Origin: a virus
Virus record (IMG/VR): IMGVR_UViG_3300018049_000017
Span: 3,998-67,997 of that record
Strand: one strand, 5' to 3'
DNA length: 64,000 nt
Under the pieces are notes generated by a model. It saw only the letters and a list, made by a program, of their open reading frames with translations, did not search any database and was not told the DNA's origin. This document shows, piece by piece, positions 3 through 52,288 of the stretch. The translations under genes and the position numbers were made by a program. Every line of letters begins with the position of its first letter. The stretch's first letter is position 1.

Positions 3-272
3 AGATTAATAGTACGAAATGATTTAGTATCACAGGCAGAAAGCTTTGGGTATATGTTGGATAATCCTGAGCAGGAAGGCAAAAAGTATAACTACAGAAA
101 AATAAGTGAAGAACATTTATTAAATTGTTTAGTACATGTACAGCAGTTAGAAGTTGGTTTGAGAAAAGTAAGGGCTAAAATAAATGGAGAAATAGAATGT
201 TATGAAGATTTGTTCGATCAATTTAGTGCTGCAAGGCATAGACAAATTAAAGAAGAAGGTAGATTAATATAA
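3..272 (+). CDS. C-terminal part of a sulfotransferase-like protein (5' end lies outside the window)
   Basis: The frame is open from the window edge (RLIVRNDLVSQAESFGYM...). RxDxxxQAxS and YEDL resemble Stf0-type sulfotransferase motifs. Ends GRLI. Confidence 0.45.
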   Translation, partial: RLIVRNDLVSQAESFGYMLDNPEQEGKKYNYRKISEEHLLNCLVHVQQLEVGLRKVRAKINGEIECYEDLFDQFSAARHRQIKEEGRLI

Positions 273-487
273 TGGTAAGTAGAAAAAGACATATACTTAA
301 AACTATCACTTGGAGAATAATAGGTACATTAGATACTATGATTCTTTCATGGATAATTACAGGCAATTGGAAATTTGGAATTGCTATCGGGGGTGTCGAG
401 TTAATAACAAAAATGGTTCTTTATTATTTCCACGAAAGAGCCTGGTATAGGTTTAGTAAATATGGAGTTAAAAAAACTAATAAGTAA
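272..487 (+). CDS. DUF2061-like small membrane protein
   Basis: RHILKTITWRIIGTLDT...KMVLYYFHERAW signature, two hydrophobic helices. Confidence 0.8.
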   Translation: MVSRKRHILKTITWRIIGTLDTMILSWIITGNWKFGIAIGGVELITKMVLYYFHERAWYRFSKYGVKKTNK

Positions 488-1259
488 AGTAGACGATAGT
501 TACGAAAGAATAAAGTTACTTAAAGACGCTTGTAAAGGAGAAACTATATACATTACTACTCCTGGTCCTTCCTTGACTTCTCACAATAGAGATATATTAG
601 TAGAAAAACTAAAAGATAAGATAGTTCTTGCATGTAAGCAATCATATAATTACGTTAAAGAAGTTGCCACCTTTCATCTAATGTCAGCCTATGGATACCA
701 ACCTTATGATTACTACTCAGATGATACTATAGTTCATTGGCAGCTTACTGCTATGAATGTACCAGGTGAGTTACAAAGAATAAAACAGGAATGGAAACAT
801 AAAGCAGATATAATGATTCCATGTTACTCTACTCCTTGGGTTGATATGTATAACACTACGGCATTTAGTAGACGATTTGATCAATTCGAATCATACAGTG
901 AAGGAAAGATTATTTGGGGACCTGGTATAATGTATGAATCAGGTATTCCTTTAGCTATGCATTTAGGAGCTAAAGAAATAGTTACTATAGGATGGGATAT
1001 TGGAGACTTATCTAAATTTGAAAGTGAAAAAGGATACAAATTAGGAGATGACGATTGGAGAAAAGAGCATGCTGAGGATTTATATGCTGAAGGAGTGCAT
1101 GCTGGAGCAGGACCTGATTATGAAGAATTAAAAGAGACTATCGATAGCACGAAAGAAATGTACGATTATTTCTTGGAAAAGGGAATTAAATTTCGTATAT
1201 TATCTAATACCAGCCCTGCTGATGGTAGATTTAAACGTATTACTATAGATGAGTTATAA
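462..1259 (+). CDS. DUF115/Maf-like (sialyltransferase-fold) putative sugar transferase
   Basis: GPSL near the N-terminus and LAMHLGAKEIVTIGWD motif. Confidence 0.6.
   Translation: MELKKLISKVDDSYERIKLLKDACKGETIYITTPGPSLTSHNRDILVEKLKDKIVLACKQSYNYVKEVATFHLMSAYGYQPYDYYSDDTIVHWQLTAMNVPGELQRIKQEWKHKADIMIPCYSTPWVDMYNTTAFSRRFDQFESYSEGKIIWGPGIMYESGIPLAMHLGAKEIVTIGWDIGDLSKFESEKGYKLGDDDWRKEHAEDLYAEGVHAGAGPDYEELKETIDSTKEMYDYFLEKGIKFRILSNTSPADGRFKRITIDEL
1173..1203 (+). promoter_or_regulatory. Bacteroidota-type promoter inside a gene
   Basis: TTG(1173)-N20-TATATTAT(1196), 46 bp upstream of the next ATG. Confidence 0.5.
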
Positions 1260-2064
1260 ATTAGCAATATACATAAAAACTTATAGTGGAGATTTTTTAA
1301 GGATTAAAAACCTTTTGAGATCAATACAAGAATTTAATATTGATGATATACCTGTATTTATATCTTGTCCTAGAGATCAATCTGGTTCTCTATTCTCAAT
1401 GATTGGTAAAGAAGGATATACTTATATACCTGATGAGTATATATTTACTCCTTCATATAGAATACCCGGATGGGAAGAACAAATGCTTGTTAAATTAAAT
1501 GCTTGGAAAAACATCGATGCTGACAACCTTCTTATTATAGATTCAGATGCTGAGTTTGTTAGGGAGTTTTACTTAGATGATTTTATAGCATACGATAATG
1601 TACCTTATACTATCATGCATGAGAATAAGCAAGTATCAGAATATGAGGCAGCTCTCAAGGGTGGTGATTATTCTAAGACTGGGTATGTTAAAGCAGTATT
1701 AGCCTACAGAGAGTTGTTTGGAGGTAAATCTAAGAAGATATACGATTATGGACCTAATCCTCACTTATGGTCTAGGAAAGTATTAGAAAGCTTCGAAGAA
1801 AATTATCTTAAGTATAATGACTTAACTATGGAAAACTTCTGTTTTGGTATAAAGAGTCAGTATGATATACATTTTAGAGAGACGTTAACATACGGAGAGT
1901 ATCTTTTAGCTGGTAGAGCAATAGATATAGTTCCTTGTGGGCCTTTCTTTAAAACGTATCATTGGAAAGAGATGTGGGACTTTGAAGAAGGTACTGGGTT
2001 AGAGTTAAAAGATAATATAAAGAAAAGTTATTTAGGTATCATTAAACAATCTAATTGGTCATGA
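1249..2064 (+). CDS. DUF6492-like GT-A fold protein
   Basis: IYIKTYSGDF.R...L..S, GWEEQMLVKL and IIDSD (DxD) motifs. Confidence 0.6.
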   Translation: MSYKLAIYIKTYSGDFLRIKNLLRSIQEFNIDDIPVFISCPRDQSGSLFSMIGKEGYTYIPDEYIFTPSYRIPGWEEQMLVKLNAWKNIDADNLLIIDSDAEFVREFYLDDFIAYDNVPYTIMHENKQVSEYEAALKGGDYSKTGYVKAVLAYRELFGGKSKKIYDYGPNPHLWSRKVLESFEENYLKYNDLTMENFCFGIKSQYDIHFRETLTYGEYLLAGRAIDIVPCGPFFKTYHWKEMWDFEEGTGLELKDNIKKSYLGIIKQSNWS

Positions 2065-5470: not shown

Positions 5471-6229
5471 ATGTTTAGAAAAATCTATACGTTTGGGTGC
5501 TCTTTCTCCGCACCGTACTGGCTTGAAGAAGAAAAAACATACACTAGCCTACTAGCTAAAAACTATAACTGTGAGGAGTTAAACAACTCTAAACCTGCTG
5601 ACTGTAATGATGCTATCTTTTTAAAATTTACAGATCATCTTCCTGATTTTAAAGAGAACGATCTAATCATTTATCAATTTACTTCCTACAATAGAGAAGG
5701 ATTCTATATTAATAATCATAAAAAGTATTTTTCTACTGCAGGTTTGTCTCCTGACCCAGAACATAATAGAAAACTATTAGATGAATTTGGAGGAGGAAGA
5801 GCTAAGTATAAGATTACTGATGATGAAATAATGACTCTTTTAGATTATACTACAATATGGTCTATATACTCTCTTCGTAATAAATTTTTAAGAGTATATA
5901 ATATTTTACAGTATTTAAAAGAAGAAAAAAATATAGACTACCAGGTATTATTTTTAGATAATCTATTTAGTTCTATAGTCTCTTCATATAACTTATTAAA
6001 GTTACCAACTAGATCAAATGAATTAAATGTAGGTATAAAAGAATGGGTTACTGCTAATAAATTAAGGTTAATAGATATGCCTACTGTTTATCACAAACAA
6101 AGAGATGAACATATTTCAATTGAAGAAGCAGGAATATACAAACAAGATAAACACCCTAATGAAAAAGCTCATGAATTGATAGCTAAAGCTATTATGAATA
6201 AACTAACTGAAAAAGCATCGTTAATATGA
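5471..6229 (+). CDS. SGNH/GDSL-like hydrolase or acyltransferase
   Basis: FGCSFS block I and DKHPNEKAH block V. Ends KASLI. Confidence 0.75.
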   Translation: MFRKIYTFGCSFSAPYWLEEEKTYTSLLAKNYNCEELNNSKPADCNDAIFLKFTDHLPDFKENDLIIYQFTSYNREGFYINNHKKYFSTAGLSPDPEHNRKLLDEFGGGRAKYKITDDEIMTLLDYTTIWSIYSLRNKFLRVYNILQYLKEEKNIDYQVLFLDNLFSSIVSSYNLLKLPTRSNELNVGIKEWVTANKLRLIDMPTVYHKQRDEHISIEEAGIYKQDKHPNEKAHELIAKAIMNKLTEKASLI

Positions 6230-6798
6230 ATTACAATGTAATAGTTTTATCGGTGAAGACAGATGTAGAGAGAAGAAAGCATATTACTAAAGTGTGTAAA
6301 ACTTTGAAGCTTAATTTTGACTTCTTTAATGCTTTAACTCCAGTTGATTTAGATGATAGTTTAATAAATACATACTATAGCAACATGGATGTATATCAAT
6401 ATCCTGAATTAAATCATAAGGCAGTATTTGCTACATTTGAAAGTCATAAAGAAATATTAAAGACAATCTATACGAGTAAACAAAACACATTAGTTTTAGA
6501 AGACGATTTAGTACCGATCAGGGACTATAATTTTACTGATATAGATTTCAGCTCTTTTGACCTACTTCAATTAATGTCTGAAATTAGTTGCTGTTATCAC
6601 TTTGTGAATTGGATATCAGCTGGGTTCCTTTATCAGAAATTTAATTCAAAAGATTATTATCCTACACAGGCTTTTGATTGGGAGTTACATAAATTAAGAA
6701 ACGAATTTAATATACAGACAGTAAACGAACCTGTCTTTGAACAAACAAATAATTTTAAATCACATTTAGCACCTTATGGTTACAAAAAAATTCATTAG
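6226..6798 (+). CDS. glycosyltransferase family 25-like
   Basis: ERRKHI, FESHKEIL and LVLEDD motifs. Confidence 0.75.
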   Translation: MNYNVIVLSVKTDVERRKHITKVCKTLKLNFDFFNALTPVDLDDSLINTYYSNMDVYQYPELNHKAVFATFESHKEILKTIYTSKQNTLVLEDDLVPIRDYNFTDIDFSSFDLLQLMSEISCCYHFVNWISAGFLYQKFNSKDYYPTQAFDWELHKLRNEFNIQTVNEPVFEQTNNFKSHLAPYGYKKIH

Positions 6799-7558
6799 AA
6801 TACTCTGGGGGAGTTTTGATAGATATAAAAATCAAATCGTTGAAGCTAGAAAAGATAACTTAAACGAAACAGTAGTGGTGTGGGGAGAAGATAATGCTAA
6901 TTTATTAGATGAATTAGGATACGATTGTCATTTAGTAAGCAACTCAGCTTATGATCCTTCTATAGCTGCTGATCATACATTTAAAGATCATAGAAGCTTG
7001 ATACACAAAATAGAAGGATTAAAAATAGCATTAGACTTACTGTATGATGAGATAGTATTTGTCGATTGGGACTGTAGAAAAGTAAAAGAGATAGATGATA
7101 ACTTTTGGAATTTATTAAGACAAAAAGAATCTAAGCTTCAAGTTCCTCTTTACACATACCCTAAAAAAGCATTTAACATAATGCTAGAAGATACAAAAAG
7201 AGAACCTCATATAAATAATTTCATCAAAAAGTTAAAAGAGTATATAGAAAAATATAGCTTTGAATATCAGACTAATCATATAATCCCTAATACTGGTTTT
7301 ATGTACTGTAATGATATTACTATCATAGATAAGTTACTAGAAATTATTAAGGCTAATGATCTTCAAACTGTACCTGACGAACTATCAGTATTTTTATACG
7401 GGCAGCATTTAGGTTTAAATCAGTTTATTAAAGAAATAGATCCATTAGTTATAGGTGGTAAGGTTCATGGATACGAATGGTGGAATAATATAGAAGATTC
7501 ATTTGATAAATACAAAGCATCGTTCGGTAATAAAACTAATTACTTTATACATTACTAA
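6776..7558 (+). CDS. putative DxD glycosyltransferase, paralogue of 27063-27773
   Basis: RILWG start, FVDWD, PLYTYPK, PNTGF, ends FIHY. Confidence 0.6.
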   Translation: MVTKKFIRILWGSFDRYKNQIVEARKDNLNETVVVWGEDNANLLDELGYDCHLVSNSAYDPSIAADHTFKDHRSLIHKIEGLKIALDLLYDEIVFVDWDCRKVKEIDDNFWNLLRQKESKLQVPLYTYPKKAFNIMLEDTKREPHINNFIKKLKEYIEKYSFEYQTNHIIPNTGFMYCNDITIIDKLLEIIKANDLQTVPDELSVFLYGQHLGLNQFIKEIDPLVIGGKVHGYEWWNNIEDSFDKYKASFGNKTNYFIHY

Positions 7559-7559
7559 T

Positions 7560-8294
7560 ATGCATTTTAAAAAAGCTTTAATACAATCACAAGAAGGATC
7601 ACCAATACATTATTTGGCTCCTATACCTGTTTATATGAAACAATTCGATGATGATGACCTTCATCAAAGAGTTTATGATTTAGGAATAGAAAAATTAGAT
7701 GCTGTTCAAAAGCAAATGGGACAAGAACTTCCTGAGCAGTTAGATTCAGAGAGGGTAGAGTCTTATTCGGTGAACTATGATAGACAAGATGATTGGGTAG
7801 AACCTAATGAGTTTCAACCTATAGGTAGTAGATTTTTTACTCCTCCTAATAATTTTCTTAACACTCCTGATCCAGATGTACAGGTTTTAGTTGATAGAAT
7901 TAAATCAGGATACATAGAACTTTTAGAAACATTACAACTAAAGAATAACAGGAACCCAGAAATCACAGAAAGCTGGATGCAGTACTATGATCCTTATAAA
8001 GGTAGAGGACATAATGCTCATAATCATTGTAGATGGAGCCCAGAAGAAGCTTCACCAACTTGTTTCTCTGGAGGATATTATTTGTCTGATGGTGAACCTA
8101 TTTTAGATCATCCTTACAGTGGGGTGTTTACTTTTCACATAAGAGGAGCAGCTCATTTTATTAGACCTAAAAAGGGAATGTTAATTATATGGCCGTATGA
8201 TATAGTACATTCTGTTAAACCATTTTACGGTAAATCAAATAGAGTAGTTATAAACTTTAACATTGAAGATTCAGAACTTAAAGGACTTTTATGA
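7560..8294 (+). CDS. 2OG-Fe(II) oxygenase
   Basis: HNH, SGGYY, GMLIIWP..IVHSV.P and RVVINFN motifs. Ends KGLL. Confidence 0.85.
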   Translation: MHFKKALIQSQEGSPIHYLAPIPVYMKQFDDDDLHQRVYDLGIEKLDAVQKQMGQELPEQLDSERVESYSVNYDRQDDWVEPNEFQPIGSRFFTPPNNFLNTPDPDVQVLVDRIKSGYIELLETLQLKNNRNPEITESWMQYYDPYKGRGHNAHNHCRWSPEEASPTCFSGGYYLSDGEPILDHPYSGVFTFHIRGAAHFIRPKKGMLIIWPYDIVHSVKPFYGKSNRVVINFNIEDSELKGLL

Positions 8295-9223
8295 ATAAAG
8301 ATTTCAGAGTAGTTTTTGTAAATTGGACTAAGCCTTATTTTTATAAGAAACAAGCTGAAGGATACAACTTTGATAAACTTGCTGATTTAACATCAGAAGA
8401 TTATGATATGGTTGATTATGAATTAAGAATTCAACAAGCAGCTATAGACTCAGTTAGAAAATATATGCCTGGTAATAGAATTTATCTATATACAGACACT
8501 GCTGGATATAATTTTTATAAACAAAAAGGAATGCTTCAAGACTTTGATTTTGTGAATATAGAAGTTTTAGATAACTATAATAAGACTGCTACTAATCCTG
8601 GTAAATGGTGGACTAGCGGTAAGTCTGTAGTTATGGGACATGTTACAACTCCATTTTTATTTTTAGATAACGATTTCATATTGCAATCTGCAATACCAGA
8701 TGAGTTTTGGGATTATGATTTAATTCATACACAATGGGAAATACAGAGAGGACATTTCTATGTCACTCAAGATATGTTTGATAAATTAGAGGTTCCTATA
8801 GATAACTTTGAGGAAAAGATGCTAATGCCTAACACTTCTTTTGTGTGGATGAATAGCGATACAATTAAAAATAACTACTATGAAAATCATTTAAAAATAG
8901 TAAATAAAGAGTATGAATCTATTCCGGAATGGCTATGGCTACTTTCTGATCAAGGGTTACTAGGTTACTGTGCTAGGGAACATCTTAATGCAAAAGTTGG
9001 AACTCTGGAGAAAAATGCTTATCTTTCTTATGCAGAGCATCCTAAAAAAGAGGATGAATGTGGGTACACTCCAATGTGGGTAGATATAAATAATAAGGAT
9101 CACTTTGATCACATTAAATATCGCCACATATGGATTGATAAAAGGAGAATGAAAAACGATATACAATTCAGAAGAAAAGTACTATCGGAGATCGAATTAA
9201 GAGAGAAGAAAGATTTATTGTAA
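8291..9223 (+). CDS. putative GT-A fold protein (DUF6734-like)
   Basis: LYTD..G, WTSGK, PFLFLDND, PNTS and DQ motifs. Ends KDLL. Confidence 0.55.
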   Translation: MNKDFRVVFVNWTKPYFYKKQAEGYNFDKLADLTSEDYDMVDYELRIQQAAIDSVRKYMPGNRIYLYTDTAGYNFYKQKGMLQDFDFVNIEVLDNYNKTATNPGKWWTSGKSVVMGHVTTPFLFLDNDFILQSAIPDEFWDYDLIHTQWEIQRGHFYVTQDMFDKLEVPIDNFEEKMLMPNTSFVWMNSDTIKNNYYENHLKIVNKEYESIPEWLWLLSDQGLLGYCAREHLNAKVGTLEKNAYLSYAEHPKKEDECGYTPMWVDINNKDHFDHIKYRHIWIDKRRMKNDIQFRRKVLSEIELREKKDLL

Positions 9224-9706: not shown

Positions 9707-10060
9707 ATGAATAAAACTCTCAAAATGATTCCTTGCCCGAAATGCGGTGAGGACTTTCCAGAACTTAGACTAACTCAATACGGATACAATTACTGTGTTA
9801 ATTGTTCTACTACTGAAAAAGTAGTTGGTATTACTACAGTAGAAGGTACTGGAGATCACACTTACAATGATATTATTATTATGGATGCTGCTAAGGCTAG
9901 AAGAATAGCTGCTGCTGAGGCTGAGTATACAGGTAATAAGAAAGTAGCATTAGAATTACTAAACTATGATGATGAAAACGAGAATTCAGTATCGCAATCT
10001 ATGAAAGAAAGCATACAAAGGGTTCTCGATGACGAAGACGATAACGATTATATCACATAA
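9707..10060 (+). CDS. DksA/TraR-type C4 zinc-finger protein
   Basis: CPKCGEDFPELRL...CVNCS, acidic tail. Confidence 0.65.
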   Translation: MNKTLKMIPCPKCGEDFPELRLTQYGYNYCVNCSTTEKVVGITTVEGTGDHTYNDIIIMDAAKARRIAAAEAEYTGNKKVALELLNYDDENENSVSQSMKESIQRVLDDEDDNDYIT

Positions 10061-10692
10061 TGCCACGTCCTTCTAAAATAATTCCTAAAGAAGATATAGA
10101 AAGAGCACAGCTTAGAACTAGATCTAATATGGCTGCAGCTAGATATCTTCGTGTATCTTATGATCATTACAAAAAGTATGCAAAGATGTATAAGAACGAA
10201 GAAGGAGTTACTTTATTGGAAGCACATAAAAATCAGCAAGGTAAAGGTATTCCTAAATTTGCATTAAAAGGAAAAGATAAAATTCCATTGATGGATTTAT
10301 TAGAAGGAAGAGTACCTATTGAGCATTTTGAAGCTCAAGAGATAAAACGAAGAATAATTTTCGAAGGACTTATAGAAGAAAAATGTGCTAAATGTAATTT
10401 TTCAGAGAGAAGAATAACTGATACTAAGGTTCCGGTTATACTTAACTTTATCGATGGCAATAAAAAAAATTGGCATCTTGATAACTTAGAGTTTCTCTGC
10501 TATAATTGTTCTTTTCTATATGCAGCATCGCCTATTGAAGAGAAACAAGCAGAGGCAATGGAGAACTATGTTAAGACACGAAATGACGAACCAGACTGGG
10601 AATTAGATCAAGCTCATATTGAGCATTTAAAGAGTTTAGGACTGTATGATGAAGAGTCAGATGACGGATCTGAGTATATTTCTAGACTGTAA
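10060..10692 (+). CDS. HNH-like protein, probably degenerate
   Basis: CAKC...LNFIDGNKKNWHLDNLEFLCYNC, with F in place of the usual first His. Confidence 0.6.
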   Translation: MPRPSKIIPKEDIERAQLRTRSNMAAARYLRVSYDHYKKYAKMYKNEEGVTLLEAHKNQQGKGIPKFALKGKDKIPLMDLLEGRVPIEHFEAQEIKRRIIFEGLIEEKCAKCNFSERRITDTKVPVILNFIDGNKKNWHLDNLEFLCYNCSFLYAASPIEEKQAEAMENYVKTRNDEPDWELDQAHIEHLKSLGLYDEESDDGSEYISRL

Positions 10693-10706
10693 AACTATTT
10701 ATTACC

Positions 10707-10859
10707 ATGGCCAAGAATAAAACAAATAAATTCTCCACTTGGAAAAAGAAGAAGCCCCTCGAGAGAAAAGTTGCTGACAAATTAGTCAACACACACGAAC
10801 GTAATGAAAAGTTACGTGAAAAAGAGATAGGGACTAAGTTCCTTGACATGTTTAACTAA
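10707..10859 (+). CDS. small basic protein, 50 aa (not in ORF track)
   Basis: MAKNKTNKFSTWKKKKPLERK...FLDMFN*, preceded by TATTTATT at 10696. Confidence 0.65.
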   Translation: MAKNKTNKFSTWKKKKPLERKVADKLVNTHERNEKLREKEIGTKFLDMFN

Positions 10860-10869
10860 ACTATAAAAT

Positions 10870-11469
10870 ATGAGAAACTTACCAATGGCGATTGGTGGGC
10901 TAGTAGTGATTTTATTGCTAATGGCTTTCACCTCAGTACAAAGAAGTTTTAACAAAGTAGAAATAATTAAATTAGAAGCAAAACCAATAGAGGTTATATT
11001 ACCTGACCCATTAGAGGGTATAAAGGTAGAAATAGATTACAAAGGACATAATGACTTTTTACAAGCAATAGGTCATAGAGAGTCTGGAAATAGATACGAA
11101 GTAGTTAATAGTTTTGGATATATGGGAAAATATCAATTCGGTAAATCGACATTAAAAGGTTTAGGATTTGATGTTACAGTAGATGAATTTATCAATAGTC
11201 CATATATTCAAGAAAAAGCAATGAATTCATTATTGTTGCATAATCAAAAAAAACTTCGTAAATTTATAGAACAATATGAAGGACAAGTAGTACATGGAGT
11301 ATTAATAACTGAGTCTGGAGTATTAGCTGCAGCACATTTAGCTGGAGCAGGTAATGTTAAAAAGTTTTTTAAAAGAGGATTTGAGTTTGAAGATGGATAC
11401 GGAACCAAAATGACATCGTACATGGCTCAATTCTCAGGATATACTTTAAGATTAAATGGCGGTAAATAA
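10870..11469 (+). CDS. lysozyme-fold / lytic transglycosylase-like protein with N-terminal signal or anchor
   Basis: Hydrophobic N-terminus, RESGNRY, GYMGKYQFG and AAAHLAG motifs. Confidence 0.75.
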   Translation: MRNLPMAIGGLVVILLLMAFTSVQRSFNKVEIIKLEAKPIEVILPDPLEGIKVEIDYKGHNDFLQAIGHRESGNRYEVVNSFGYMGKYQFGKSTLKGLGFDVTVDEFINSPYIQEKAMNSLLLHNQKKLRKFIEQYEGQVVHGVLITESGVLAAAHLAGAGNVKKFFKRGFEFEDGYGTKMTSYMAQFSGYTLRLNGGK

Positions 11470-12208
11470 AATAATCTTTTTAGGAGATACATTTACAAGA
11501 GGAGATGGAGCAGAATGGCCTGGGATGTTTTCCAAGCTAGGTGCTCTTCCTTTTGAATTTAAGCAAAATACTTGGCACCAAAGACTCAGAAAAGAGGTAA
11601 ATGATTTTAGTAAACTATCTCAAGACTTTAATAAGTTCTTCGGACCTCAGTTAGTTAAAAATGCTGAGTACGTAATAGAAACTAGAGAAAGTCAAGGCTG
11701 GGCAAAAAGAGTTGCCGATCATTTTAAACTCCCTTATAAGAATTATTCTAATAATTTCAAGTCAATAGGAGAGTACTTACCTTTTTTGAACTATCACAGT
11801 GATGATGATTTAAAGAATTGCTTAGTAATAGCTGGAGTACTTCCTATAGTAAATGATTTTACATTTAATCATGCAAATCAAAAACAATTAAGAAATATTA
11901 CTGTTCCTTATTTTGCTTCTCAGATACTTTTAATGAAAGAGTATGTAGAGAACAGAGGAGGTATATTTTTATATTTTCATACTACAGACTATCCTGAAGT
12001 ATTATATGATCCAAAGTTTAATGAGTTTATTTTAGAACTTAGTCCTCTGTTACTTTTAGAGGGTATTTTTGAAAATAATATTGGTCAGTCATTCAGATTT
12101 AGAAAGTTCGACGGCATTCATTATGATATAGGAGGTCAAAAAGAGATAGCAAGAATTATTATAAATCAGTTGGAATCCTCCGAATTTATTCGTATATTTA
12201 AAGAATAA
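11456..12208 (+). CDS. SGNH-like protein with Thr in place of the catalytic Ser
   Basis: FLGDTFTRG and DGIHYDIGGQ motifs. Confidence 0.6.
   Translation: MAVNKIIFLGDTFTRGDGAEWPGMFSKLGALPFEFKQNTWHQRLRKEVNDFSKLSQDFNKFFGPQLVKNAEYVIETRESQGWAKRVADHFKLPYKNYSNNFKSIGEYLPFLNYHSDDDLKNCLVIAGVLPIVNDFTFNHANQKQLRNITVPYFASQILLMKEYVENRGGIFLYFHTTDYPEVLYDPKFNEFILELSPLLLLEGIFENNIGQSFRFRKFDGIHYDIGGQKEIARIIINQLESSEFIRIFKE
12170..12200 (+). promoter_or_regulatory. Bacteroidota-type early promoter
   Basis: TTG(12170)-N20-TATATTTA(12193), then AAAGGTT-ATG. Confidence 0.75.
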
Positions 12209-12217
12209 ATAAAGGTT

Positions 12218-12376
12218 ATGAAATGTTCTATTTGTAGAAAAACTATCGACGGTCATGGTAATAATCCTTGGCCTTTAGAAAGTTCAGATAAAGATAGATG
12301 TTGTGATTCTTGCAACATGAATTTTGTTATTCCTGCTAGACTTAAACTTACTACCTATGGCGGAGAAACGTGGTGA
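12218..12376 (+). CDS. small Cys-rich zinc-binding protein, 52 aa (not in ORF track)
   Basis: MKCSICRKTIDGHGNNPWP...RCCDSCNMNFVIPARL...W*, directly behind the promoter. Confidence 0.8.
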   Translation: MKCSICRKTIDGHGNNPWPLESSDKDRCCDSCNMNFVIPARLKLTTYGGETW

Positions 12377-12671
12377 AACAGAGAAGTTAGTTTATGACTT
12401 CAATACAGCTGGTTGTTTAGAGATATTTATGAATGAGACTTGGTATCGTACAACAGCTAGAGACTTCAGATCATTTGATGGTCCTAGAAGAATAACAGAA
12501 CCTACTGATGTTAAGTTAGGTAATGTAAATGTTCCTATGAGAACATATGAGTATTGGGGACCGGTTTATATGTTTGGCACTAATAAAGAAATGGCCTACA
12601 CAAATTCTGGTTCTATGTACACAGGAAAAATATGGGAAAGAAATAGAAAAATATCAGATAGCAGAAGATGA
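12357..12671 (+). CDS. hypothetical protein
   Basis: ATG at 12357 (MAEKRG...) preferred over the TTG at 12324. Confidence 0.7.
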   Translation: MAEKRGETEKLVYDFNTAGCLEIFMNETWYRTTARDFRSFDGPRRITEPTDVKLGNVNVPMRTYEYWGPVYMFGTNKEMAYTNSGSMYTGKIWERNRKISDSRR

Positions 12672-12964
12672 AAAAATTTCAATTTAACTCAACAGAACAA
12701 TTCGAGGATTTATTCTCTACCAGAAACTTAGAAGTTACTGATGCAATAGTAGAAGGAATAGAAAATGCTATGGTTCATAGAAAAAGAACAGCAAAGATTT
12801 TTAGTGTTACTTTTGCTAACTATGAGGTCGCATATGAGATTAGCTTACCAAAAGTAGAATGGGTAGGTTCTTTAGATTCCTGTTTAGACTTTTATCACGA
12901 AAATAATGAAACCGATAAGGCTATTGATACTTGGAAGTTGAGAGAAACAGCTAAAGTTTTATGA
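12668..12964 (+). CDS. hypothetical protein
   Basis: ATGA-coupled ORF. Confidence 0.7.
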   Translation: MKKFQFNSTEQFEDLFSTRNLEVTDAIVEGIENAMVHRKRTAKIFSVTFANYEVAYEISLPKVEWVGSLDSCLDFYHENNETDKAIDTWKLRETAKVL

Positions 12965-14151
12965 GAATAGTTCAAAGTTATATTCCTTTTAACAAACATG
13001 CACAGCCAGAAGCAATAATCGGAAAGGATTATGCTTATCTTGCTTTGCTAAGTTCCTTACAGCTTAAAAAAGTATACGGTAATGTTACTTTATATACATC
13101 TAATAAATTAGCTGAAATGTTTGATAGTATGGACTTCCCATACGAATATAATACTTCGATTGATGATGAAAGAGCTGTTTATTTTGCAGCAGCTAAATTA
13201 AGAACATTTATGGATCAAAAAGAACCTTTTATCCATTATGATCTTGATACTTTAGTATTTGAAAAACCTAATCTTGATGTTAAGACTTCACCATTTGTAT
13301 TTTCTCATAAAGATATGCCTAATGGTGGATACTGGAAAAAAGATAGAGTTGTACCTAAACTAAAACATAAGGCAATAAATAAACTTATTCAAGATAGATG
13401 GTTTCAAAACCTAATGGATTCTTACCTATTAGCTTATTATAATACAACTTATCTCCCAAATGATTATCCTTCTCATTTGATCAACCCTAATAATATTCCT
13501 AATATGAATATCATTGCGGTGAAGGATCCTGAAACATTTAAGAAAGCTACAGCCATAGCAATGGATATTGCAAACAAGAACGAAAAGATATTTGCTAACA
13601 ATTGGCTGGCTTCTAATTTTATAGAGCAGTTAACTATTCCTCTTTACCTAGAATTGTTCAGTGAGGATTATAGAAAAGCATTAGATGATAAAACTCCGTT
13701 AGGTTCTCCTTTTATGTTCGAAAAAGATCCTTTTACAGTTCCAAGCTTAGGAACATCAGAAGAGGATGTAAAAAGACAAGTAAATAACCTTCCGGAATAT
13801 CCATTTAAGTTCCAAAACTATTATGCTTGTGGTGAATGTTTAGAATGGCACAAGAAAGATATTCTAATCAACTCTAAAAAAGATCTTTTAAACAATCTAG
13901 ATTTGTCCAAGGTTAAGTATGCACATATTGGAGGAGCAAATAAATCATTTGCATTGTGGCAAAGTATGATTATTCATACATTGATTGAAAACTACGGAGA
14001 AGAAACTTTATACAAAGTCACTAATCATTACAGAAAGATGCACGAGAGAGATAATATTCCTTATAAATTATCTACTGGTGAACAAGCATATGAAACTCTT
14101 ACAGGTAACAAACTATTTAGTCAAAAATACTTATATAGTTATATAATATAG
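12961..14151 (+). CDS. putative GT-A fold protein (DUF6734-like)
   Basis: LSSLQLKKVYG.V.LYT, AAAKL, PFIHYDLD, PNMNI and IEQ motifs. Ends SYII. Confidence 0.6.
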   Translation: MRIVQSYIPFNKHAQPEAIIGKDYAYLALLSSLQLKKVYGNVTLYTSNKLAEMFDSMDFPYEYNTSIDDERAVYFAAAKLRTFMDQKEPFIHYDLDTLVFEKPNLDVKTSPFVFSHKDMPNGGYWKKDRVVPKLKHKAINKLIQDRWFQNLMDSYLLAYYNTTYLPNDYPSHLINPNNIPNMNIIAVKDPETFKKATAIAMDIANKNEKIFANNWLASNFIEQLTIPLYLELFSEDYRKALDDKTPLGSPFMFEKDPFTVPSLGTSEEDVKRQVNNLPEYPFKFQNYYACGECLEWHKKDILINSKKDLLNNLDLSKVKYAHIGGANKSFALWQSMIIHTLIENYGEETLYKVTNHYRKMHERDNIPYKLSTGEQAYETLTGNKLFSQKYLYSYII

Positions 14152-14161
14152 TTACAAAAAT

Positions 14162-14206
14162 AACTATTAAAATAGTTGCCTAGGAACTTAATTTTTCGTA
14201 TATTTA
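14162..14206 (+). promoter_or_regulatory. early promoter with AACT-N8-AGTT inverted repeat
   Basis: AACT(14162), AGTT(14174), TTG(14176)-N20-TATATTTA(14199). Confidence 0.75.
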
Positions 14207-14234
14207 AGTATATAAATTTTTAATCAAATAAGTT

Positions 14235-15080: not shown

Positions 15081-15096
15081 TTAATTATTGTAAGTT

Positions 15097-15128: not shown

Positions 15129-15130
15129 TT

Positions 15131-16938: not shown

Positions 16939-17643
16939 ATGGCAAAAGCATTCTTTTTTGGAGATAGTTTTACAAGAGGAGATGGGTTGTTAGATCCAGA
17001 ATTGATTCCTAATATAGATAATATTCCTCATTGGACAGAATATGTTGCTACTGAGCTTGGCTATTCTGAGTATGAAAATCATGGTAGGCAGGGTAATTCT
17101 AATGATGAAATACTGTTAGATATTATTTCTACTATGGGTGAGTTTAATGATGGTGATTTAGTTTGTATCGGACAAACGTTTATGGAAAGACAAATTTTTC
17201 CATGTTGGAGGATAGATAAAGTAGATAGAACAGGAAGGTTAGAATATAAAGATAGACATGAATGGATTACAAGAGTAGGTAGTACGAATGCAGGTGTTGA
17301 TGATCTTTTTCATCCTGAGGTACAAAAAAAGTTTGCAATGGAATCTGGGGAGTACATGGGAGATATGGTCATAGGAACTCAGGCGTATATTTCGTTTGTT
17401 AAGACCAGAATGCCTGCTCATTTTCAGCAATATTATAGATTTAGATTTGCAGAACTAGCCAGGTACTTAAATAAAATAGGAGTTCAGGTTTACTTATGGG
17501 ACGTGCCCGATAATTGTCCTGATTATGAATCAATAAAGAAATTTACAAACGGGCAGATTATGGACGGACATTGGTCTTGGAACGGTAGTTTATTGTTTGG
17601 CAAAAAGGTTGTAAAAGATATTAAAAAAGGTAAATATATTTAA
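16939..17643 (+). CDS. SGNH-like protein
   Basis: FGDSFTRG, GRQGNSN and DGHWSWNG motifs. Confidence 0.75.
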   Translation: MAKAFFFGDSFTRGDGLLDPELIPNIDNIPHWTEYVATELGYSEYENHGRQGNSNDEILLDIISTMGEFNDGDLVCIGQTFMERQIFPCWRIDKVDRTGRLEYKDRHEWITRVGSTNAGVDDLFHPEVQKKFAMESGEYMGDMVIGTQAYISFVKTRMPAHFQQYYRFRFAELARYLNKIGVQVYLWDVPDNCPDYESIKKFTNGQIMDGHWSWNGSLLFGKKVVKDIKKGKYI

Positions 17644-23803: not shown

Positions 23804-24039
23804 TGAAAGAAATTAGACAGCAGTTTACAAAAGCGCTCAAGGTCATTGACTCGTGCAATAGGCCTGAGCACTTTATGTCTGCTAAAACCTATATCAATCT
23901 ATTCTTCAAAGTTAATAGCACTAAAGCTAAATATGGTACTTATGAAGTAGATCCTGTTATAGTCAATTATTATGAAACGCTCAAGAATAAATTAAAAAGA
24001 GCAAAAAGAAAGTTTTATATTACAAAAGAGGACTCCTGA
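23803..24039 (+). CDS. hypothetical protein
   Basis: TAATG-coupled ORF. Confidence 0.65.
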   Translation: MKEIRQQFTKALKVIDSCNRPEHFMSAKTYINLFFKVNSTKAKYGTYEVDPVIVNYYETLKNKLKRAKRKFYITKEDS

Positions 24040-24727
24040 ACCTCTGGACGTGTTTATAAAACAGATGAGAAGCCCATGCTTCATGTCCTTCAGCAGAAGG
24101 ATGTCCGCATGGAAGATCTGAAGTGAAGTTATTATGCTCTAAAAATTGAGCCATCACATCAGAAGTCCAAGATGGACGATCAGGGATGTCTTCATAGAAG
24201 TTATGAGACATAAATTGGATTAGGTTAAGGTTATTTAAGTTAGCCCAGCCTTCTAAAAGTTCTTTGAATACTTGGTTGTTGAATTGATAATGAGCATCAG
24301 CATTGATAAAGCCTACATAGTTTTGTAGGAAGTATTTTTGATCTCTATTCAATTTGTTAAGATTATGCATCTGAAGAAAAGGATAACGGTATAAAGTATC
24401 TGTGGTATTGAACTCATTACCTCCATCTTCTCCAAACTCTTGCTTTTCAGTTGCTATAGGAATAGGATGTCTATGAGGTTGAGTCCATTGAAACACTACT
24501 AGATCTTCATCTGTTATGTAGCCGCTTCTTTGTAACCTCAATAGTGAGTATAATGATAAGTAATCATTTCCTCCTGGCACAGCGTAGTTACGCTCTGGAG
24601 TGTTGAACATCTTTGATAAGTGAAAGGAGTATCTCTCTTTGAATCTATCTTTTAAACCTGCTCCGTAAGTGTAGGAACAACCGAAGTAATGAGCTTTGCG
24701 AAAGACATCGCGAAATGGATATGACAT
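24020..24727 (-). CDS. SGNH-like protein on the minus strand
   Basis: FGCSYTYG, PGGND and GHPSAEGH motifs. ATG at 24727 follows a minus-strand TATTTATA (24752-24745). Ends SPLL. Confidence 0.8.
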   Translation of the reverse strand: MSYPFRDVFRKAHYFGCSYTYGAGLKDRFKERYSFHLSKMFNTPERNYAVPGGNDYLSLYSLLRLQRSGYITDEDLVVFQWTQPHRHPIPIATEKQEFGEDGGNEFNTTDTLYRYPFLQMHNLNKLNRDQKYFLQNYVGFINADAHYQFNNQVFKELLEGWANLNNLNLIQFMSHNFYEDIPDRPSWTSDVMAQFLEHNNFTSDLPCGHPSAEGHEAWASHLFYKHVQRFRSPLL

Positions 24728-24754
24728 ATTAATTAAAACTTTATTATAAATAGT

Positions 24755-24898
24755 ATGAAAAAGCACAGACAATATAGATCGAATCAAGGAAGATCTCCTA
24801 GACAGCAAGCTAGTAATGAGAAGATTACTATCTTAGCAGTACTTGGTCTTTTAATTACACTTATATTTACAGTTATTGATAACTTCATTAGAGGTTAA
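24755..24898 (+). CDS. 47-aa membrane peptide (not in ORF track)
   Basis: MKKHRQYRSNQGRSPRQ...ILAVLGLLITLIFTVI...*, TAATG-coupled to the next gene. Confidence 0.65.
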   Translation: MKKHRQYRSNQGRSPRQQASNEKITILAVLGLLITLIFTVIDNFIRG

Positions 24899-25578
24899 TG
24901 GTTACAGCTGTACTTACAAAATATAGAAGAGAGTGGTTATTTGATCAACAATTAGCTGCTGTTAAGGATCAGGAATTAGATGTTTCTGAAGTCCTTGTTT
25001 GTGATAATACAGAGGATAATAAAGGAGTATGGGAAAGGTTTAGATTAGCTCAAGAGGCTAGTAATGACTTTGTTTGGATATTAGATGATGATATCATACC
25101 CGGCCCTAAATACCTCAGTAATGTTTGGAATGAGTTTGAGAAGCAAGAAGGATTGTATGGTACTAGAGGACTTCTATTCAACTCTCCAGATAGATATCAA
25201 TTCAATTATAGAGAAGCAGGATGGACTAAACCTGTACCAGTTGTAACAGAAGTAGATTATGTGACTCACAGTTGGTTCTTTAGAAAAGAGTGGTTGGACA
25301 TTTATTGGAGAGCTACTAACGTACCATTTGACAATGGAGAGGATATGAACTTCTCTTTTCAATTGCAGAAGGAAGGAATAAGAACATTTGTGCCTCCGCA
25401 CCCTAGAGGTAAAAAAGAAGTATGGGGTAATACAGTAGGCATTATAAACGACATGCAAGGATTGTGGGATAGTAATCCTAAAAGAGATGGAGAGCACTTC
25501 AGAGATAGAATGTTTGTTTACTTTGATTATCTAATAGAACAAGGATGGGACTTAATAAATAAAAACAATTTAATATAA
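24898..25578 (+). CDS. GT-A (GT2-like) glycosyltransferase
   Basis: WILDDDIIPG, EVDY and GEDM..S motifs. Ends NNLI. Confidence 0.8.
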   Translation: MVTAVLTKYRREWLFDQQLAAVKDQELDVSEVLVCDNTEDNKGVWERFRLAQEASNDFVWILDDDIIPGPKYLSNVWNEFEKQEGLYGTRGLLFNSPDRYQFNYREAGWTKPVPVVTEVDYVTHSWFFRKEWLDIYWRATNVPFDNGEDMNFSFQLQKEGIRTFVPPHPRGKKEVWGNTVGIINDMQGLWDSNPKRDGEHFRDRMFVYFDYLIEQGWDLINKNNLI

Positions 25579-27773: not shown

Positions 27774-28522
27774 AGAGAATTATACCATTTTTCAAATGTA
27801 CCACTTAAATATTCGTTACAAAGCCTCAAATGTGCTTCAGAATCATAGTGTCCATCACCGGGAACGGGTGAAATGTTGTTTTCTTCAAAAAATCCTCCTT
27901 CATTCATGCAATTTTGCTCTATATAGGTAACATCGTCAAGTATCCATCGGTATTGAGGTAGTAGATAACTGCTTTTCAACGGTTCATTCCATGAGAAAGC
28001 TAAAAGTTTCTTGTTGAACTTGTTGCAAATAGTGATAAAGTTCATAAGATTTTGGTTTGAATAGTTTTTCATCCAATTCGACAGAGCAATTTCCCTAAAA
28101 ATAAACTTGTGTATGTTTTGAGTCGGGTAGTTTGGCTTAAAGTGGTCCATAAATGGGGTTCCGAACTTCTTATCGCTTTGAATATTATGCCAAGTATACA
28201 TTCCTATGTGTTTGACCCTTGCTCCATTGTGTTCTTTATCCTCTTCCCACTGCCATTCCTTGTTATCCCAGTGTCTAAACCCAAGAGTTAACCTTGTCGC
28301 ACCAGAAATTTGACATATTACACCGTCGATTTCGTGTTCTTCCAGGTCATATAGCAGTTTATCGATGTACATTCCTACATTTGCTCCGGGAGACGCTCGT
28401 TGTATTAGTTTGAAGTCGAATTTTTCCGCTAAATGTTTACACCAAGGCTTACCTTTAGTGTTTCCTACTGCTCCAAAATCATCAGATGAGTGGGAGCATC
28501 CATAAACCGCTATAGTTTTCAT
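27770..28522 (-). CDS. SGNH-like protein
   Basis: YGCSHS, SPGAN and DGHYDSEAH motifs. Confidence 0.75.
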   Translation of the reverse strand: MKTIAVYGCSHSSDDFGAVGNTKGKPWCKHLAEKFDFKLIQRASPGANVGMYIDKLLYDLEEHEIDGVICQISGATRLTLGFRHWDNKEWQWEEDKEHNGARVKHIGMYTWHNIQSDKKFGTPFMDHFKPNYPTQNIHKFIFREIALSNWMKNYSNQNLMNFITICNKFNKKLLAFSWNEPLKSSYLLPQYRWILDDVTYIEQNCMNEGGFFEENNISPVPGDGHYDSEAHLRLCNEYLSGTFEKWYNSL

Positions 28523-28998
28523 AATAATTGTGGGTTTTTAGGGACAGTCCACATGTTTAAAGAGAATCTCCTTCCTTTTGTAATGGTTTCTACACTATGA
28601 TACACAGAGTTGCCGTTAAAAGTTAGTAGGTCTCCTTGATTTAGGGTAATTTTTTCCTTGCTAGTGCTCACAACAAACCTTCCTCCTTCGTAATTTTCGT
28701 TCAAACTAGCTACAAAAGTGAAAGAGCTATCAGTATCTATATGCTTAGGTAGTTTGCTCCCTTCTTCATATACGGTTATATTGATCCAAGTAATGGTGTG
28801 TTCATACCCAACTAGGGGGGAAAATTTTGCGGAAATTTCTTTATATAGGGGGGTTTCTGGTGGAAGTGTAAATACATTAGTTCCGTATCTGGACTGTCTT
28901 TGGTCTAATCTATTATTACTGGTAAAATGTTCTTTATAATTCTCAATAAGATCACTACACCAGTCATAATCTAAAAATTTTCTATGTACTTGTACCAT
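28519..28998 (-). CDS. 2OG-Fe(II) oxygenase, prolyl-hydroxylase-like
   Basis: HID, LNENYEGG and HSV..I..G.R motifs. Ends PQLL. Confidence 0.9.
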   Translation of the reverse strand: MVQVHRKFLDYDWCSDLIENYKEHFTSNNRLDQRQSRYGTNVFTLPPETPLYKEISAKFSPLVGYEHTITWINITVYEEGSKLPKHIDTDSSFTFVASLNENYEGGRFVVSTSKEKITLNQGDLLTFNGNSVYHSVETITKGRRFSLNMWTVPKNPQLL

Positions 28999-38535: not shown

Positions 38536-38536
38536 T

Positions 38537-39592: not shown

Positions 39593-39947
39593 GGATATAA
39601 AAATTCAAAAAACCGTATATAAGAAAGACGCTTTCGGGAAAGTAGTAGACAGCTCGTTTAGTACATTTAAGCAACCTGAACCCGTCGCTATATCTAAAAC
39701 TATAGATGAGTTTTTCAAAGACTATGAAGATCTATATTTAGAAATTGCTATAAACGGGGATGAAAAATCACACGAATACTTAGTTGAAAGAAGCAGTGAG
39801 CTATTAAACATTCAAGATGCTTTAGTAGACATACAACCACTATTAGATGAAATAGCTGATTTAAGACAACAGCTTTTAGAGGCTAATCAAGAAAATATAG
39901 ATTTAACAATAGAAAACGCAACATTACAAGGCGGTGGTGGAGAATAG
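39585..39947 (+). CDS. hypothetical structural-operon protein with coiled-coil tail
   Basis: Overlap-coupled with both neighbours. Confidence 0.65.
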   Translation: MAKDIKIQKTVYKKDAFGKVVDSSFSTFKQPEPVAISKTIDEFFKDYEDLYLEIAINGDEKSHEYLVERSSELLNIQDALVDIQPLLDEIADLRQQLLEANQENIDLTIENATLQGGGGE

Positions 39948-51009: not shown

Positions 51010-51259
51010 ACCATACTCTGAAATAAGAGAAGATGGTTTTATTATAAGAGAATTCTCTCAGAATATTTCTCCATTTGAATTAGTATGGCATAGAGATAAA
51101 GCAGACAGAATAGTCGAAGCTATGCATGAAACTGATTGGCTGTTCCAATTGGATAACGAACTACCTATACCTATAGATAAAATATTTATTCCAAAAGAGA
51201 CCTATCATCGTCTTATAAAAGGAAAGGGTAAGTTAAAAGTTAAAATAAAAGAGTTATAA
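50981..51259 (+). CDS. small cupin-like protein
   Basis: ELVWHRD...IFIPKETYHRLIKG. Start uncertain. Confidence 0.6.
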   Translation: MDRTSQVTGRPYSEIREDGFIIREFSQNISPFELVWHRDKADRIVEAMHETDWLFQLDNELPIPIDKIFIPKETYHRLIKGKGKLKVKIKEL

Positions 51260-51399
51260 TGGCTAAACAATTTGGAGGCATTAGCTCTATATGGAGATCA
51301 TCAAAAAAAAAGAGACCTGGGGTACATGCTAAAAGTAAAATGTCCCGTTCTAAAGGATCTAAAAACTACGTGAAGCCATATAGAGGTCAAGGCAGATAA
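51259..51399 (+). CDS. 46-aa very basic peptide ending KPYRGQGR (not in ORF track)
   Basis: TAATG-coupled, MAKQFGG...KKKRPGVHAKSK... Confidence 0.75.
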   Translation: MAKQFGGISSIWRSSKKKRPGVHAKSKMSRSKGSKNYVKPYRGQGR

Positions 51400-51409
51400 A
51401 GTTATTAAT

Positions 51410-52288
51410 ATGAAACCAAGCGTACATCAATTCGGCGCTAGCGGTATATTCGTTATTAGCGATTCAAACAATATAGAAAGAAGACAAAGGTTTGTTGAAG
51501 ACTGGAGTAATGTATCTAATTTTGATTATGAGTTTGTAGATGCTACTATGGGTAGCAGTATAGATGTTTCTAGTTTAATTAATGAAGGAAGACTTACTAA
51601 ATTTTGGTGTGGTGAAGGAGGAGTAAGTAAAAACGTTATAGCTTGTTTTTTATCTCATAGAAAAGTGTGGAAAAGCATAAAAGATTTACCTCACGAAAAC
51701 TACTACTTAATTTTAGAAGATGATGTTAGGTTAACTCCCTATTTTTTAAACACAGCATTTAGCAACGGAGAATTTAAAAAAGTACTCAACAATATTCACA
51801 AAGAAGATATAAACTGTTTTTGGTGGGGTAGAGCTGACAATAAAGTAATAGGTAAACAGTATAACAAACACTTGAAAGTACCTGATGCTTTTATTGCACT
51901 AGGTGCTCATAGTTATATGATTACACCAGGGTTTGCAAACTACCTATACAATGAAAGTTTCAACATAAGCTGTCCAGCAGATGTTTTTATAGATTTACTG
52001 CTCTTAGGAATAAAAAGACATTACACACCAAACTTTTCATATATGAGACAAATGCAACATATGATTAAGGATAGATTTTTTCCTTTAGATCACAAATATA
52101 GAGTCTGGGGCAGTACTACTCAACCTGATTGGACTGACCATACCACTAGGGTTTATGAAGGGTTGTACAAGAACGTATCACCAGATATTAGAAAATTTAT
52201 TACTGATGCTTCTCAAGAATTCATTGCTGAATTTAAAAAAGGTATTTCTTTTAAGTTTGAGATATTTGAAGAGAAAGAGCTTTTATAA
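51410..52288 (+). CDS. glycosyltransferase family 25
   Basis: ERRQ, FVDA, ACFLSHRKVW, LILEDD, AHSYMI and PAD motifs. Ends KELL. Confidence 0.9.
   Translation: MKPSVHQFGASGIFVISDSNNIERRQRFVEDWSNVSNFDYEFVDATMGSSIDVSSLINEGRLTKFWCGEGGVSKNVIACFLSHRKVWKSIKDLPHENYYLILEDDVRLTPYFLNTAFSNGEFKKVLNNIHKEDINCFWWGRADNKVIGKQYNKHLKVPDAFIALGAHSYMITPGFANYLYNESFNISCPADVFIDLLLLGIKRHYTPNFSYMRQMQHMIKDRFFPLDHKYRVWGSTTQPDWTDHTTRVYEGLYKNVSPDIRKFITDASQEFIAEFKKGISFKFEIFEEKELL

Follow-up and report, generated by a model that had tools for sequence, protein, structure and literature searches.

Background

It is textbook knowledge, for eukaryotes as well as for the replication clamp, that a short peptide at the end of a protein can direct a range of unrelated enzymes. 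The peroxisomal targeting signal type 1 (PTS1, -SKL) and the KDEL/HDEL signals are C-terminal tri- and tetrapeptides of eukaryotic organelles, with an obligatory free end, carried by many unrelated enzymes and read by one receptor that collects them at one location. PDZ ligands, of which class I ends in [S/T]-x-aliphatic-COOH and class II forms a further type, are likewise terminal, the bacterial PDZ proteins being mostly periplasmic, and the cargo-loading peptides of encapsulins and the capsid-targeting sequence of phage T4 are short terminal peptides on flexible linkers that direct a variety of cargo enzymes to a phage-like shell or prohead. Here we describe a comparable ending, two residues of Leu or Ile directly before the stop codon ([LI][LI], from here: the tag), on tailoring enzymes encoded in bases 3998–67997 of the 67,997-base phage record IMGVR_UViG_3300018049_000017 of IMG/VR (this stretch of 64,000 nucleotides is from here: the window), as well as in phages related to it.

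Like PTS1 and KDEL, the phage ending stands at the extreme C-terminus of unrelated proteins, and the variants SKLI, KKDLL and EKELL even resemble these signals; we know of no compartment or receptor of that kind in phage-infected bacteria. With PDZ ligands it shares the terminal aliphatic residue and the free carboxylate, and Ser or Thr occupies position −3 in 26 of the 85 unique tails; however, Lys or Asn is as common there, and domains PDZ_2 and PDZ_6 were not found in the five contigs searched for them. The encapsulin and T4 peptides differ in being longer and of another consensus, that of T4 also in being N-terminal and cleaved.

Two bacterial systems come close as well. The motif that binds the β sliding clamp reads Q-aliphatic-x-[L/M]-[F/L] and, like the PIP box, is a short, often C-terminal hydrophobic motif on the disordered tails of many unrelated enzymes that meet in one hub pocket (excerpt of PMC11139829). 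The phage tags differ from it by lacking the Gln and the aliphatic residue at motif position 2 and by the rarity of Phe, and they sit on tailoring-like rather than DNA enzymes. In MuA, the transposase of phage Mu, the C-terminus serves as the C-motif-2 degron of ClpX, in which basic residues precede a small or aliphatic end (excerpt of PMC12723719). Here the likeness lies in a phage protein with a basic stretch just upstream of such an end, read in the case of MuA by a host machine; the difference is that MuA is one protein, as opposed to a dozen enzyme families, and that an aliphatic pair closes the tails described here. In kind, the tag belongs with the short linear signals at protein ends, a class that includes PTS1/KDEL, degrons and the motifs that bind the clamp.

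Genes for 2-oxoglutarate/Fe(II)-dependent oxygenases (2OG), tryptophan halogenases, carbamoyltransferases and sugar metabolism are numerous in myoviruses of marine and fresh waters, and their role has been open since at least 2010, according to an excerpt of PMC3037559. Searches of the literature (main texts without supplements) returned no description of a shared C-terminal tag on phage tailoring enzymes. A structural extension at the C-terminus of phage thymidine dioxygenases, specific to one clade, is described in the excerpt of a preprint, but it is different from the tag. The setting, the consensus and the spread over a dozen phage enzyme families appear to be new. A shared label would mean that the tagged enzymes work jointly at a single site; that site could then be approached through the tag peptide and through tag deletion, and the label would provide a sequence rule for spotting members of the pathway in genomes of uncultured phages.

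Results and discussion

Enrichment of the tag in the source contig and in related phages

Statistics for the source contig were based on a greedy set of 104 open reading frames (ORFs) of at least 40 aa from the whole 67,997 bases, and an ORF was counted as tagged if it ended in [LI][LI]. This held for 10/104 ORFs, compared to 2.45 expected from the internal dipeptide frequency of 2.36% (binomial p = 1.8e-4). The nine endings on modifying enzymes listed by the initial annotation, as well as the same ending on one non-modifier ORF (ESDEII, stop at 30435), are all true ORF ends. Its count of 9/21 tagged modifiers versus 1/65 others corresponds to a Fisher p of 5e-6, and the enrichment persisted after reclassing, with 9/28 sugar or tailoring genes tagged versus 1/76 others (Fisher p = 2e-5; classing partly by hand). 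Because the pattern was picked post hoc, because the classing was partly manual and because a third of the tags (three of nine) coincide with an ATGA stop/start overlap, the window alone provides suggestive, moderate evidence. The evidence that makes the case strong comes from the relatives and not from the window alone.

Eight related IMG/VR contigs (G001 to G008) were compared with the source contig (G000), counting ORFs of at least 80 aa; all contigs compared are fragments, 6–73% complete. Tagged were 10/84 ORFs in G000, 5/57 in G001, 12/78 in G002, 13/47 in G003, 17/62 in G004, 14/37 in G005, 21/172 in G006, 8/131 in G007 and 8/91 in G008, or 108/759 in the pool of nine, at internal dipeptide frequencies of 2.2–2.8%. 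The eight relatives hence have approximately 5–38% of their ORFs tagged, with p values from 0.008 to 1e-13. The densest run was found in G006, where 11 of 12 consecutive genes between 95195 and 104862 are tagged.

The tag is distributed bimodally, both among phage lineages and among protein families. Sixty families occurred in at least three of the nine contigs; 12 of these were tagged in at least 50% of their members and 41 lacked the tag, leaving seven intermediate ones. When IMG/VR was scanned with the 2OG protein encoded at 7503–8294, 61 loci were obtained, and after deduplication 53/235 other proteins were tagged at loci with a tagged 2OG versus 18/379 at loci with an untagged one. Scanning with an alignment of DUF6734 proteins yielded 32 loci with close homologues, at which 152/531 unique proteins were tagged, and 12 loci with distant homologues (32–36% identity), at which the tag was found in 0/206 proteins.

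The 2OG orthologues illustrate how the tag is attached. Their conserved core always ends in ...VINFNIQ; in a subset, a polar linker of 5–13 residues follows that ends in K/S/N-L-I or -L-L, and the remaining orthologues terminate directly after the core. In the tree of the 2OG cores, the tagged rows fall into three separately supported clades, so at least three changes in tagging are needed, and the cellular rows are untagged. The expectation that cellular homologues would be without the tail was borne out by 0/7 tagged among the readable ends of 2OG homologues in assemblies of Flavobacteriales, Cryomorphaceae, Schleiferiaceae, Sandaracinaceae and Pyrinomonadaceae.

At least a dozen unrelated tailoring enzymes of related, uncultured low-GC aquatic phages bear the tag. 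The carriers comprise several 2OG oxygenase families, two DUF6734 families, sulfotransferase-like, tryptophan-halogenase-like (3/4 tagged over the nine contigs), GT25, GT2-like and SGNH-like proteins (GT: glycosyltransferase) and one B12/radical-SAM protein of 1167 aa. Untagged over the nine contigs were APS kinase (0/6), the CTP_transf_like protein (0/7) and DUF2061 (0/7), as well as primase and most structural, baseplate, fibre and replication families, with one baseplate family at 1/5.

The backbones of the tag-carrying phages resemble Flavobacterium phage immuto, in which 8/234 ORFs are tagged genome-wide versus 5.2 expected and 1 of about 13 in its own sugar cluster. Similarly, 0/6 oxygenase and halogenase genes are tagged in Pelagibacter phage HTVC008M. 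An informative case is the IMG/VR locus L052 (13,127 bases), which shares its backbone with the source phage (neighbouring proteins 47–87% identical) and has few tailoring genes, all of them untagged, including a 2OG and a DUF6734-like one. The tag thus travels with enzyme cassettes and not with the virion backbone, and a conserved structural protein is therefore unlikely to be its reader. GenBank phages contain no homologue of the 2OG or DUF6734 proteins, hence no cultured tagged phage is at hand. Contigs of 192–340 kb that encode such proteins are on record, however.

HTVC008M also shows where such genes can be located. Its oxygenase and halogenase genes (L158, 43778–85046) are embedded among the structural genes, and two of them separate the genes of the small and the large terminase subunit; this placement suggests late expression together with the virion proteins.

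Form of the tail

The pair is strictly terminal. Among 365 ORFs, [LI][LI] occurred 71 times at offset 0, 6–17 times at each of the offsets 1–11 and six times at the N-terminal positions 2–3. In a set of 85 unique tails, preselected for [LI][LI], position −2 was L in 64 and I in 21, position −1 was I in 50 and L in 35, and K, S, N and T predominated at position −3. The commonest residues at −4 were K (25), N (14), S (9) and L (7), those at −5 were K (24), N (11) and E (11), with Q outside the seven commonest. The consensus is [K/N]-[K/N/S]-[K/S/N/T]-[L>I]-[I>L]-COOH; occasionally the final residue is M, V or F instead. Lys makes up 25% of positions −8 to −3 compared to 7% in the protein bodies, and the net charge is +1.0 in tagged versus +0.2 in untagged tails.

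Alignments of the 2OG family (A1), of the sulfotransferase-like family (A3) and of the small 2OG family (A4) all show conserved cores followed by variable tails in which the last two positions alone are kept. The linker, which also contains Pro, Gly and polar residues, is about 5–45 residues long and begins after the last conserved element of the fold. These properties agree with the earlier proposal of a functional tag on otherwise unrelated enzymes and outside their folds: it is strictly terminal, it follows the core and it is kept in orthologues while the linker varies. The tail would accordingly be exposed and flexible. Strict terminal placement on a flexible linker is, we infer, the usual form of a peptide that is read via its free carboxylate.

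At the level of codons, Leu at −2 is encoded much as inside the proteins (TTA 0.66 versus 0.56, besides CTT, CTA, TTG and CTG), each of the three stop codons is found after tags, and orthologues keep the ending with varied codons, stops and downstream contexts. Selection hence appears to act on the amino acids rather than on the nucleotides. We put the probability that the ending is a real, selected C-terminal signal at the protein level at roughly 0.85.

The tagged proteins of the window

Both 2OG assignments of the initial annotation were retained. The larger protein (7503..8294, + strand; PF13759/PF13640), the true start of which is likely the Met at residue 20, has a core ending in ...VINFNIE, followed by a tail that closes with KGLL. 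Its family has 59 members at the IMG/VR loci, of which 17 are tagged, and 6/7 are tagged over the nine contigs. The smaller one (28519..28998, − strand; PF13640, prolyl-hydroxylase-like) has a core ending in ...RFSLNMW and then a tail ending in KNPQLL; alignment A4 shows a variable tail of 7–20 aa that finishes with x-L-[IL], and all members over the nine contigs are tagged (10/10). A word-index search with this protein gave a single match.

The GT25 glycosyltransferase at 51410..52288 (+; Pfam E 5e-17), which ends in EKELL and is followed by a 27-nt gap, was likewise correctly named. Ten of its 16 homologues (31–99% identity) end in [LI][LI], the residues before the pair being variable, and a scan of IMG/VR with this single protein returned identical copies only. 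For the GT2-like protein of 226 aa at 24898..25578 (+), ending in KNNLI before a gap of 145 nt, there were weak Pfam matches only, and no relatives were found in searches that included a single-protein scan of IMG/VR.

The two proteins first labelled GT-like turned out to belong to DUF6734. One (8291..9223, +) ends in KKDLL, has a weak Pfam match (E 1.5e-5) and a conserved acidic D-x-D stretch, and its homologues carry a precomputed PF20508 annotation. Over the nine contigs 7/9 members of its family are tagged; among 120 homologues, 78 end in [LI][LI] and 101 in [LIVMF]2. The other (12961..14151, +; 396 aa, Pfam E 4e-16) ends in YSYII and is the weakest among the supported tags, since only 2/6 family members are tagged and other ends read KVI, SVI and IMF.

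No Pfam match at E ≤ 0.01 supported the label SGNH for the proteins at 5471..6229 (+; 252 aa, enzyme-like, ending in KASLI) and 24020..24808 (−; 262 aa, ending in RSPLL). They are distant paralogues, with 27% identity over 95 aa of their N-terminal parts (E 2e-6). The KASLI family is tagged in 3/4 members over the nine contigs. Among the homologues of the RSPLL protein, the gene end of which converges on a gene on the + strand, 7/29 are tagged, including the two closest full-length ones (58% and 42% identity). Single-protein scans of IMG/VR found no relatives of either.

At the beginning of the window, positions 3..272 (+) encode the C-terminal part of a sulfotransferase-like protein ending in GRLI; the full protein has 172 aa (locus L001:3751–4269) and starts upstream of the window. 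The window protein itself had no Pfam match, and the name is backed by weak matches of 3/5 family members to Sulfotransfer_3 (best E 0.0014). Over the nine contigs 7/8 members are tagged, on tails of 12–45 aa in which alignment A3 has the Leu at −2 as the only invariant position. The gene adjoins those for APS kinase, a CTP_transf_like protein and DUF2061.

A near match, KGKYI, closes a GDSL-like protein (16939..17643, +; weak Pfam match). It looks like a degenerate copy of the tag, because 10/17 members of its family are tagged over the nine contigs.

The stop context of the nine tags is mixed: three lie at ATGA overlaps, one at TAATG, and five are followed by a gap of 23–145 nt or by a convergent neighbour. 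The cluster annotations of the searched proteins offered no name beyond "hypothetical protein", and profile searches of solved structures gave no significant match for the 2OG, DUF6734 and sulfotransferase-like families.

Docking or sorting as the favoured role

Tentatively, and at somewhat less than even odds, we read the tag as a motif for docking or sorting, on the ground that it is missing from enzymes whose products are soluble donors. One receptor pocket would read the free carboxyl end together with the two aliphatic side chains, the basic linker would aid binding, and enzymes acting on one shared acceptor would be gathered at one place as an assembly line, for which the makers of soluble donors such as 3′-phosphoadenosine-5′-phosphosulfate (PAPS) and CMP- or NDP-sugars would need no tag. 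Since the comparison with L052 disfavours a conserved backbone protein, the receptor would be either host-encoded or travel with the enzyme cassette.

More specifically, sorting of the PTS1/KDEL kind might take place in infected bacteria, where a free -[K/S/N]-L-I end would gather hydroxylases, a halogenase, sulfo- and glycosyltransferases and the B12/radical-SAM protein on one scaffold that builds a heavily modified virion component. We consider this fuller version rather unlikely. Its scaffold would possibly be the giant coiled-coil fibre protein whose gene, in three contigs, adjoins the run of tagged ones. If true, phages could exchange enzyme cassettes, and the tag would ensure that the newcomers fit the existing assembly line.

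Giant proteins of 1612–2561 aa adjoin the tagged runs in G003 (9996–16421), G004 (32045–39730) and G006 (105687–110525; loci L077, L081–L082 and L143), that of G003 with coiled-coil-type Pfam matches. They are followed by small Tyr/Gly-rich proteins in G006 and by three paralogues of about 370 aa in G003 and in G004. The giant proteins and those that follow them are possible candidates for the acceptors of the modifications.

Several observations weigh against a docking tag. No untagged family that could serve as receptor is common to all tagged contigs, and the families common to all six contigs first compared are the tagged enzymes themselves. PDZ_2 and PDZ_6 domains (PF13180, PF17820) were detected in 0/5 contigs (G000 to G004) at E ≤ 0.1, with control genomes positive and the host not searched, and β-clamp or gp45 domains were found in none of G000, G002, G006, G007 and G008. 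Of the roughly 28 modifier genes in the window no more than nine have the tag, and those without it include two GT2 genes, one GT25 gene and the genes for the MptE-like and DUF6492 proteins. The split between acceptor-acting and donor-making enzymes is itself a reading of Pfam names, into which carbamoyltransferase (1/5 tagged) and the Y-F-x-H family (0/9) fit poorly. Finally, tags are strongly associated with ATGA overlaps (33/70) and ATA is over-used at the last Ile, and for these two reasons nucleotide context contributes to the ending.

Four untagged families are specific to tag-rich loci, namely DUF2061 (20/32 loci), a 496-aa protein (17/32), the Y-F-x-H family (14/32) and carbamoyltransferase (10/32). 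None of the four occurs in G001, and DUF2061 has homologues at untagged loci as well.

The untagged 496-aa protein (L039:19053–20543; homologues in G003 to G008) is encoded inside a tagged run and has a Cys/Trp-rich C-terminus and no Pfam match; the ESM Atlas gave a weak ATP-grasp/tubulin-tyrosine-ligase-like lead (0.75). An enzyme acting on protein C-termini would be of interest beside tagged genes.

Alternative explanations

By analogy with MuA, the best alternative to docking, which we rank second and regard as unlikely, would be a C-terminal degron or unfoldase handle for a host AAA+ machine (ClpX-type, FtsH or Lon) that either keeps the tailoring enzymes short-lived or removes them from what they have made. 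The strict terminal specificity and the lysine-rich upstream stretch have the form of ClpX C-motif-2, in which a basic run precedes a small or aliphatic C-terminus (excerpt of PMC12723719). A host receptor would also fit the absence of a phage-encoded reader among the contigs searched and a tag that moves with enzyme cassettes and not with the backbone. However, there is no evident reason to destabilise a dozen enzymes and yet spare the neighbouring PAPS and sugar-nucleotide enzymes, and the last three residues differ from the MuA example.

The main rival to a protein-level signal is a by-product at the nucleotide level, which we judge improbable. In tightly packed, AT-rich operons, the final codons would at the same time form the start region of the gene that follows, or read-through into that gene would create a stop/start overlap, and K/N/L/I-rich ends would result that have no function in the protein. 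The sequence preceding intergenic starts consists of A and T to about 90%, and T occupies position −1 in 54%. An ATGA overlap forces a last codon ending in A, which alone favours a last L or I, and genes at such overlaps end in L/I in 53/70 cases and are tagged in 47%, as opposed to 7–19% in the other classes. The last Ile uses ATA at 0.74 versus 0.44 elsewhere, and virtual tails derived from 81 real intergenic start regions gave [LI][LI] in 8/81, four times the internal baseline.

The claim of the initial annotation that AT-rich stop context alone does not suffice nevertheless withstood this comparison: the start-region model yields approximately 10% against the share observed at ATGA overlaps, and it predicts K or Y at −2 where L (25 of 53) and I (8 of 53) were observed. 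Furthermore, 11/57 genes followed by a gap of more than 50 nt are still tagged, the Leu codons at −2 follow ordinary usage, and Ser and Thr, which do not have AT-only codons, are common at −3. The same operons hold untagged families, and the loci of the distant DUF6734 group, comparably AT-rich, are free of tags. A start-region by-product was thus largely rejected, as a baseline of about 10% reaches neither 47% nor the excess of Leu at −2.

Equally improbable is weak membrane targeting, in which the Lys residues would bind anionic lipid and the aliphatic pair would insert, bringing the enzymes to a lipid-linked glycan at the inner face. The linker is net positive with a hydrophobic tip, the clusters are glycan-rich (GT2, GT25, a pyruvyl-transferase fragment and a CMP-sugar cytidylyltransferase), and the DUF2061 protein that accompanies 20/32 tag-rich loci is a small predicted membrane protein. 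Such targeting would not need the exact terminal position, yet offsets 1–11 are at background; an amphipathic helix would need more length than many of the linkers have, which moreover contain Pro or Gly, and soluble-type enzymes (halogenase-like, 2OG) are tagged as well. An aliphatic pair beside a charged carboxylate is also a poor membrane anchor.

Far less probable still is that the tail binds the β sliding clamp of the host, without the Gln of the usual motif, and thereby tethers enzymes that modify DNA. The clamp motif closes with [L/M][F/L], where Ile is also accepted, and when it stands at the C-terminus the free carboxylate takes part (excerpt of PMC11139829); in addition, a weak match to Tet_JBP (E 8.5e-4) was obtained for the small 2OG, and the same phage encodes a protein with the exact ending QLSLF. 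Against it, the tails deviate from two of the four defined motif positions, lacking the Q of position 1 and the aliphatic residue of position 2, with K, N and S dominating −5 and −4; Phe, which suits the clamp best as final residue, is seldom seen in tags, and the gene content indicates tailoring of glycans or proteins, not of DNA.

The protein with the clamp-like end is encoded at 23240–23803 (+). It has 187 aa and no Pfam match, and its C-terminus ...KQLSLF is an exact match to the C-terminal clamp motif. Because no clamp gene was found in five related contigs, it may use the clamp of the host.

Chance or shared descent of paralogues is next to negligible as an explanation, for although the pattern was chosen after viewing the data and the window holds two pairs within one Pfam family each besides the two distantly paralogous SGNH-like proteins, independent contigs gave p values from 1e-5 to 1e-13, tails within families differ in length and sequence, the tagged 2OG rows form three separate clades, and pairwise comparisons showed no BLAST similarity between the two 2OG proteins or between the two DUF6734 proteins (8291–9223 and 12961–14151), by which paralogy was rejected.

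Gene content of the source contig

The source contig is about 41% complete according to CheckV and has 30–35% G+C. Its baseplate genes resemble those of Flavobacterium phage vB_FspM_immuto at 68% nucleotide identity, a distant match and the sole one to a GenBank phage; no close DNA relatives were found among GenBank phages by megablast. The sugar and tailoring genes are packed in the first 30 kb, with one further gene at 51 kb. Upstream of the window, locus L001 encodes a pyruvyl-transferase fragment, a methyltransferase, a CMP-sugar cytidylyltransferase, APS kinase, a HAD phosphatase and a CTP_transf_like protein. The window itself contains genes for DUF2061, MptE-like, DUF6492, two GT2, two GT25, two 2OG oxygenases, two DUF6734 proteins, GDSL-like proteins and an FAD/NAD reductase.

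A PAPS module, consisting of APS kinase, HAD phosphatase, CTP_transf_like, sulfotransferase-like and DUF2061 genes, extends over L001:2614–3754 and window positions 272–487. It is kept beside tagged enzymes in 6–7 of the nine contigs, and the module itself is never tagged.

Two paralogues in the window, at 6776–7558 (+) and 27063–27773 (−), have no Pfam match and belong to the family that always ends in Y-[FL]-x-H-x. This end is a different, fold-linked conserved C-terminus within the same clusters.

An ORF of 219 aa at 54835–55494 (+), left out of the greedy gene set, overlaps the start of a Zeta-toxin-like kinase ORF (55256–56194, +) by about 240 bases.

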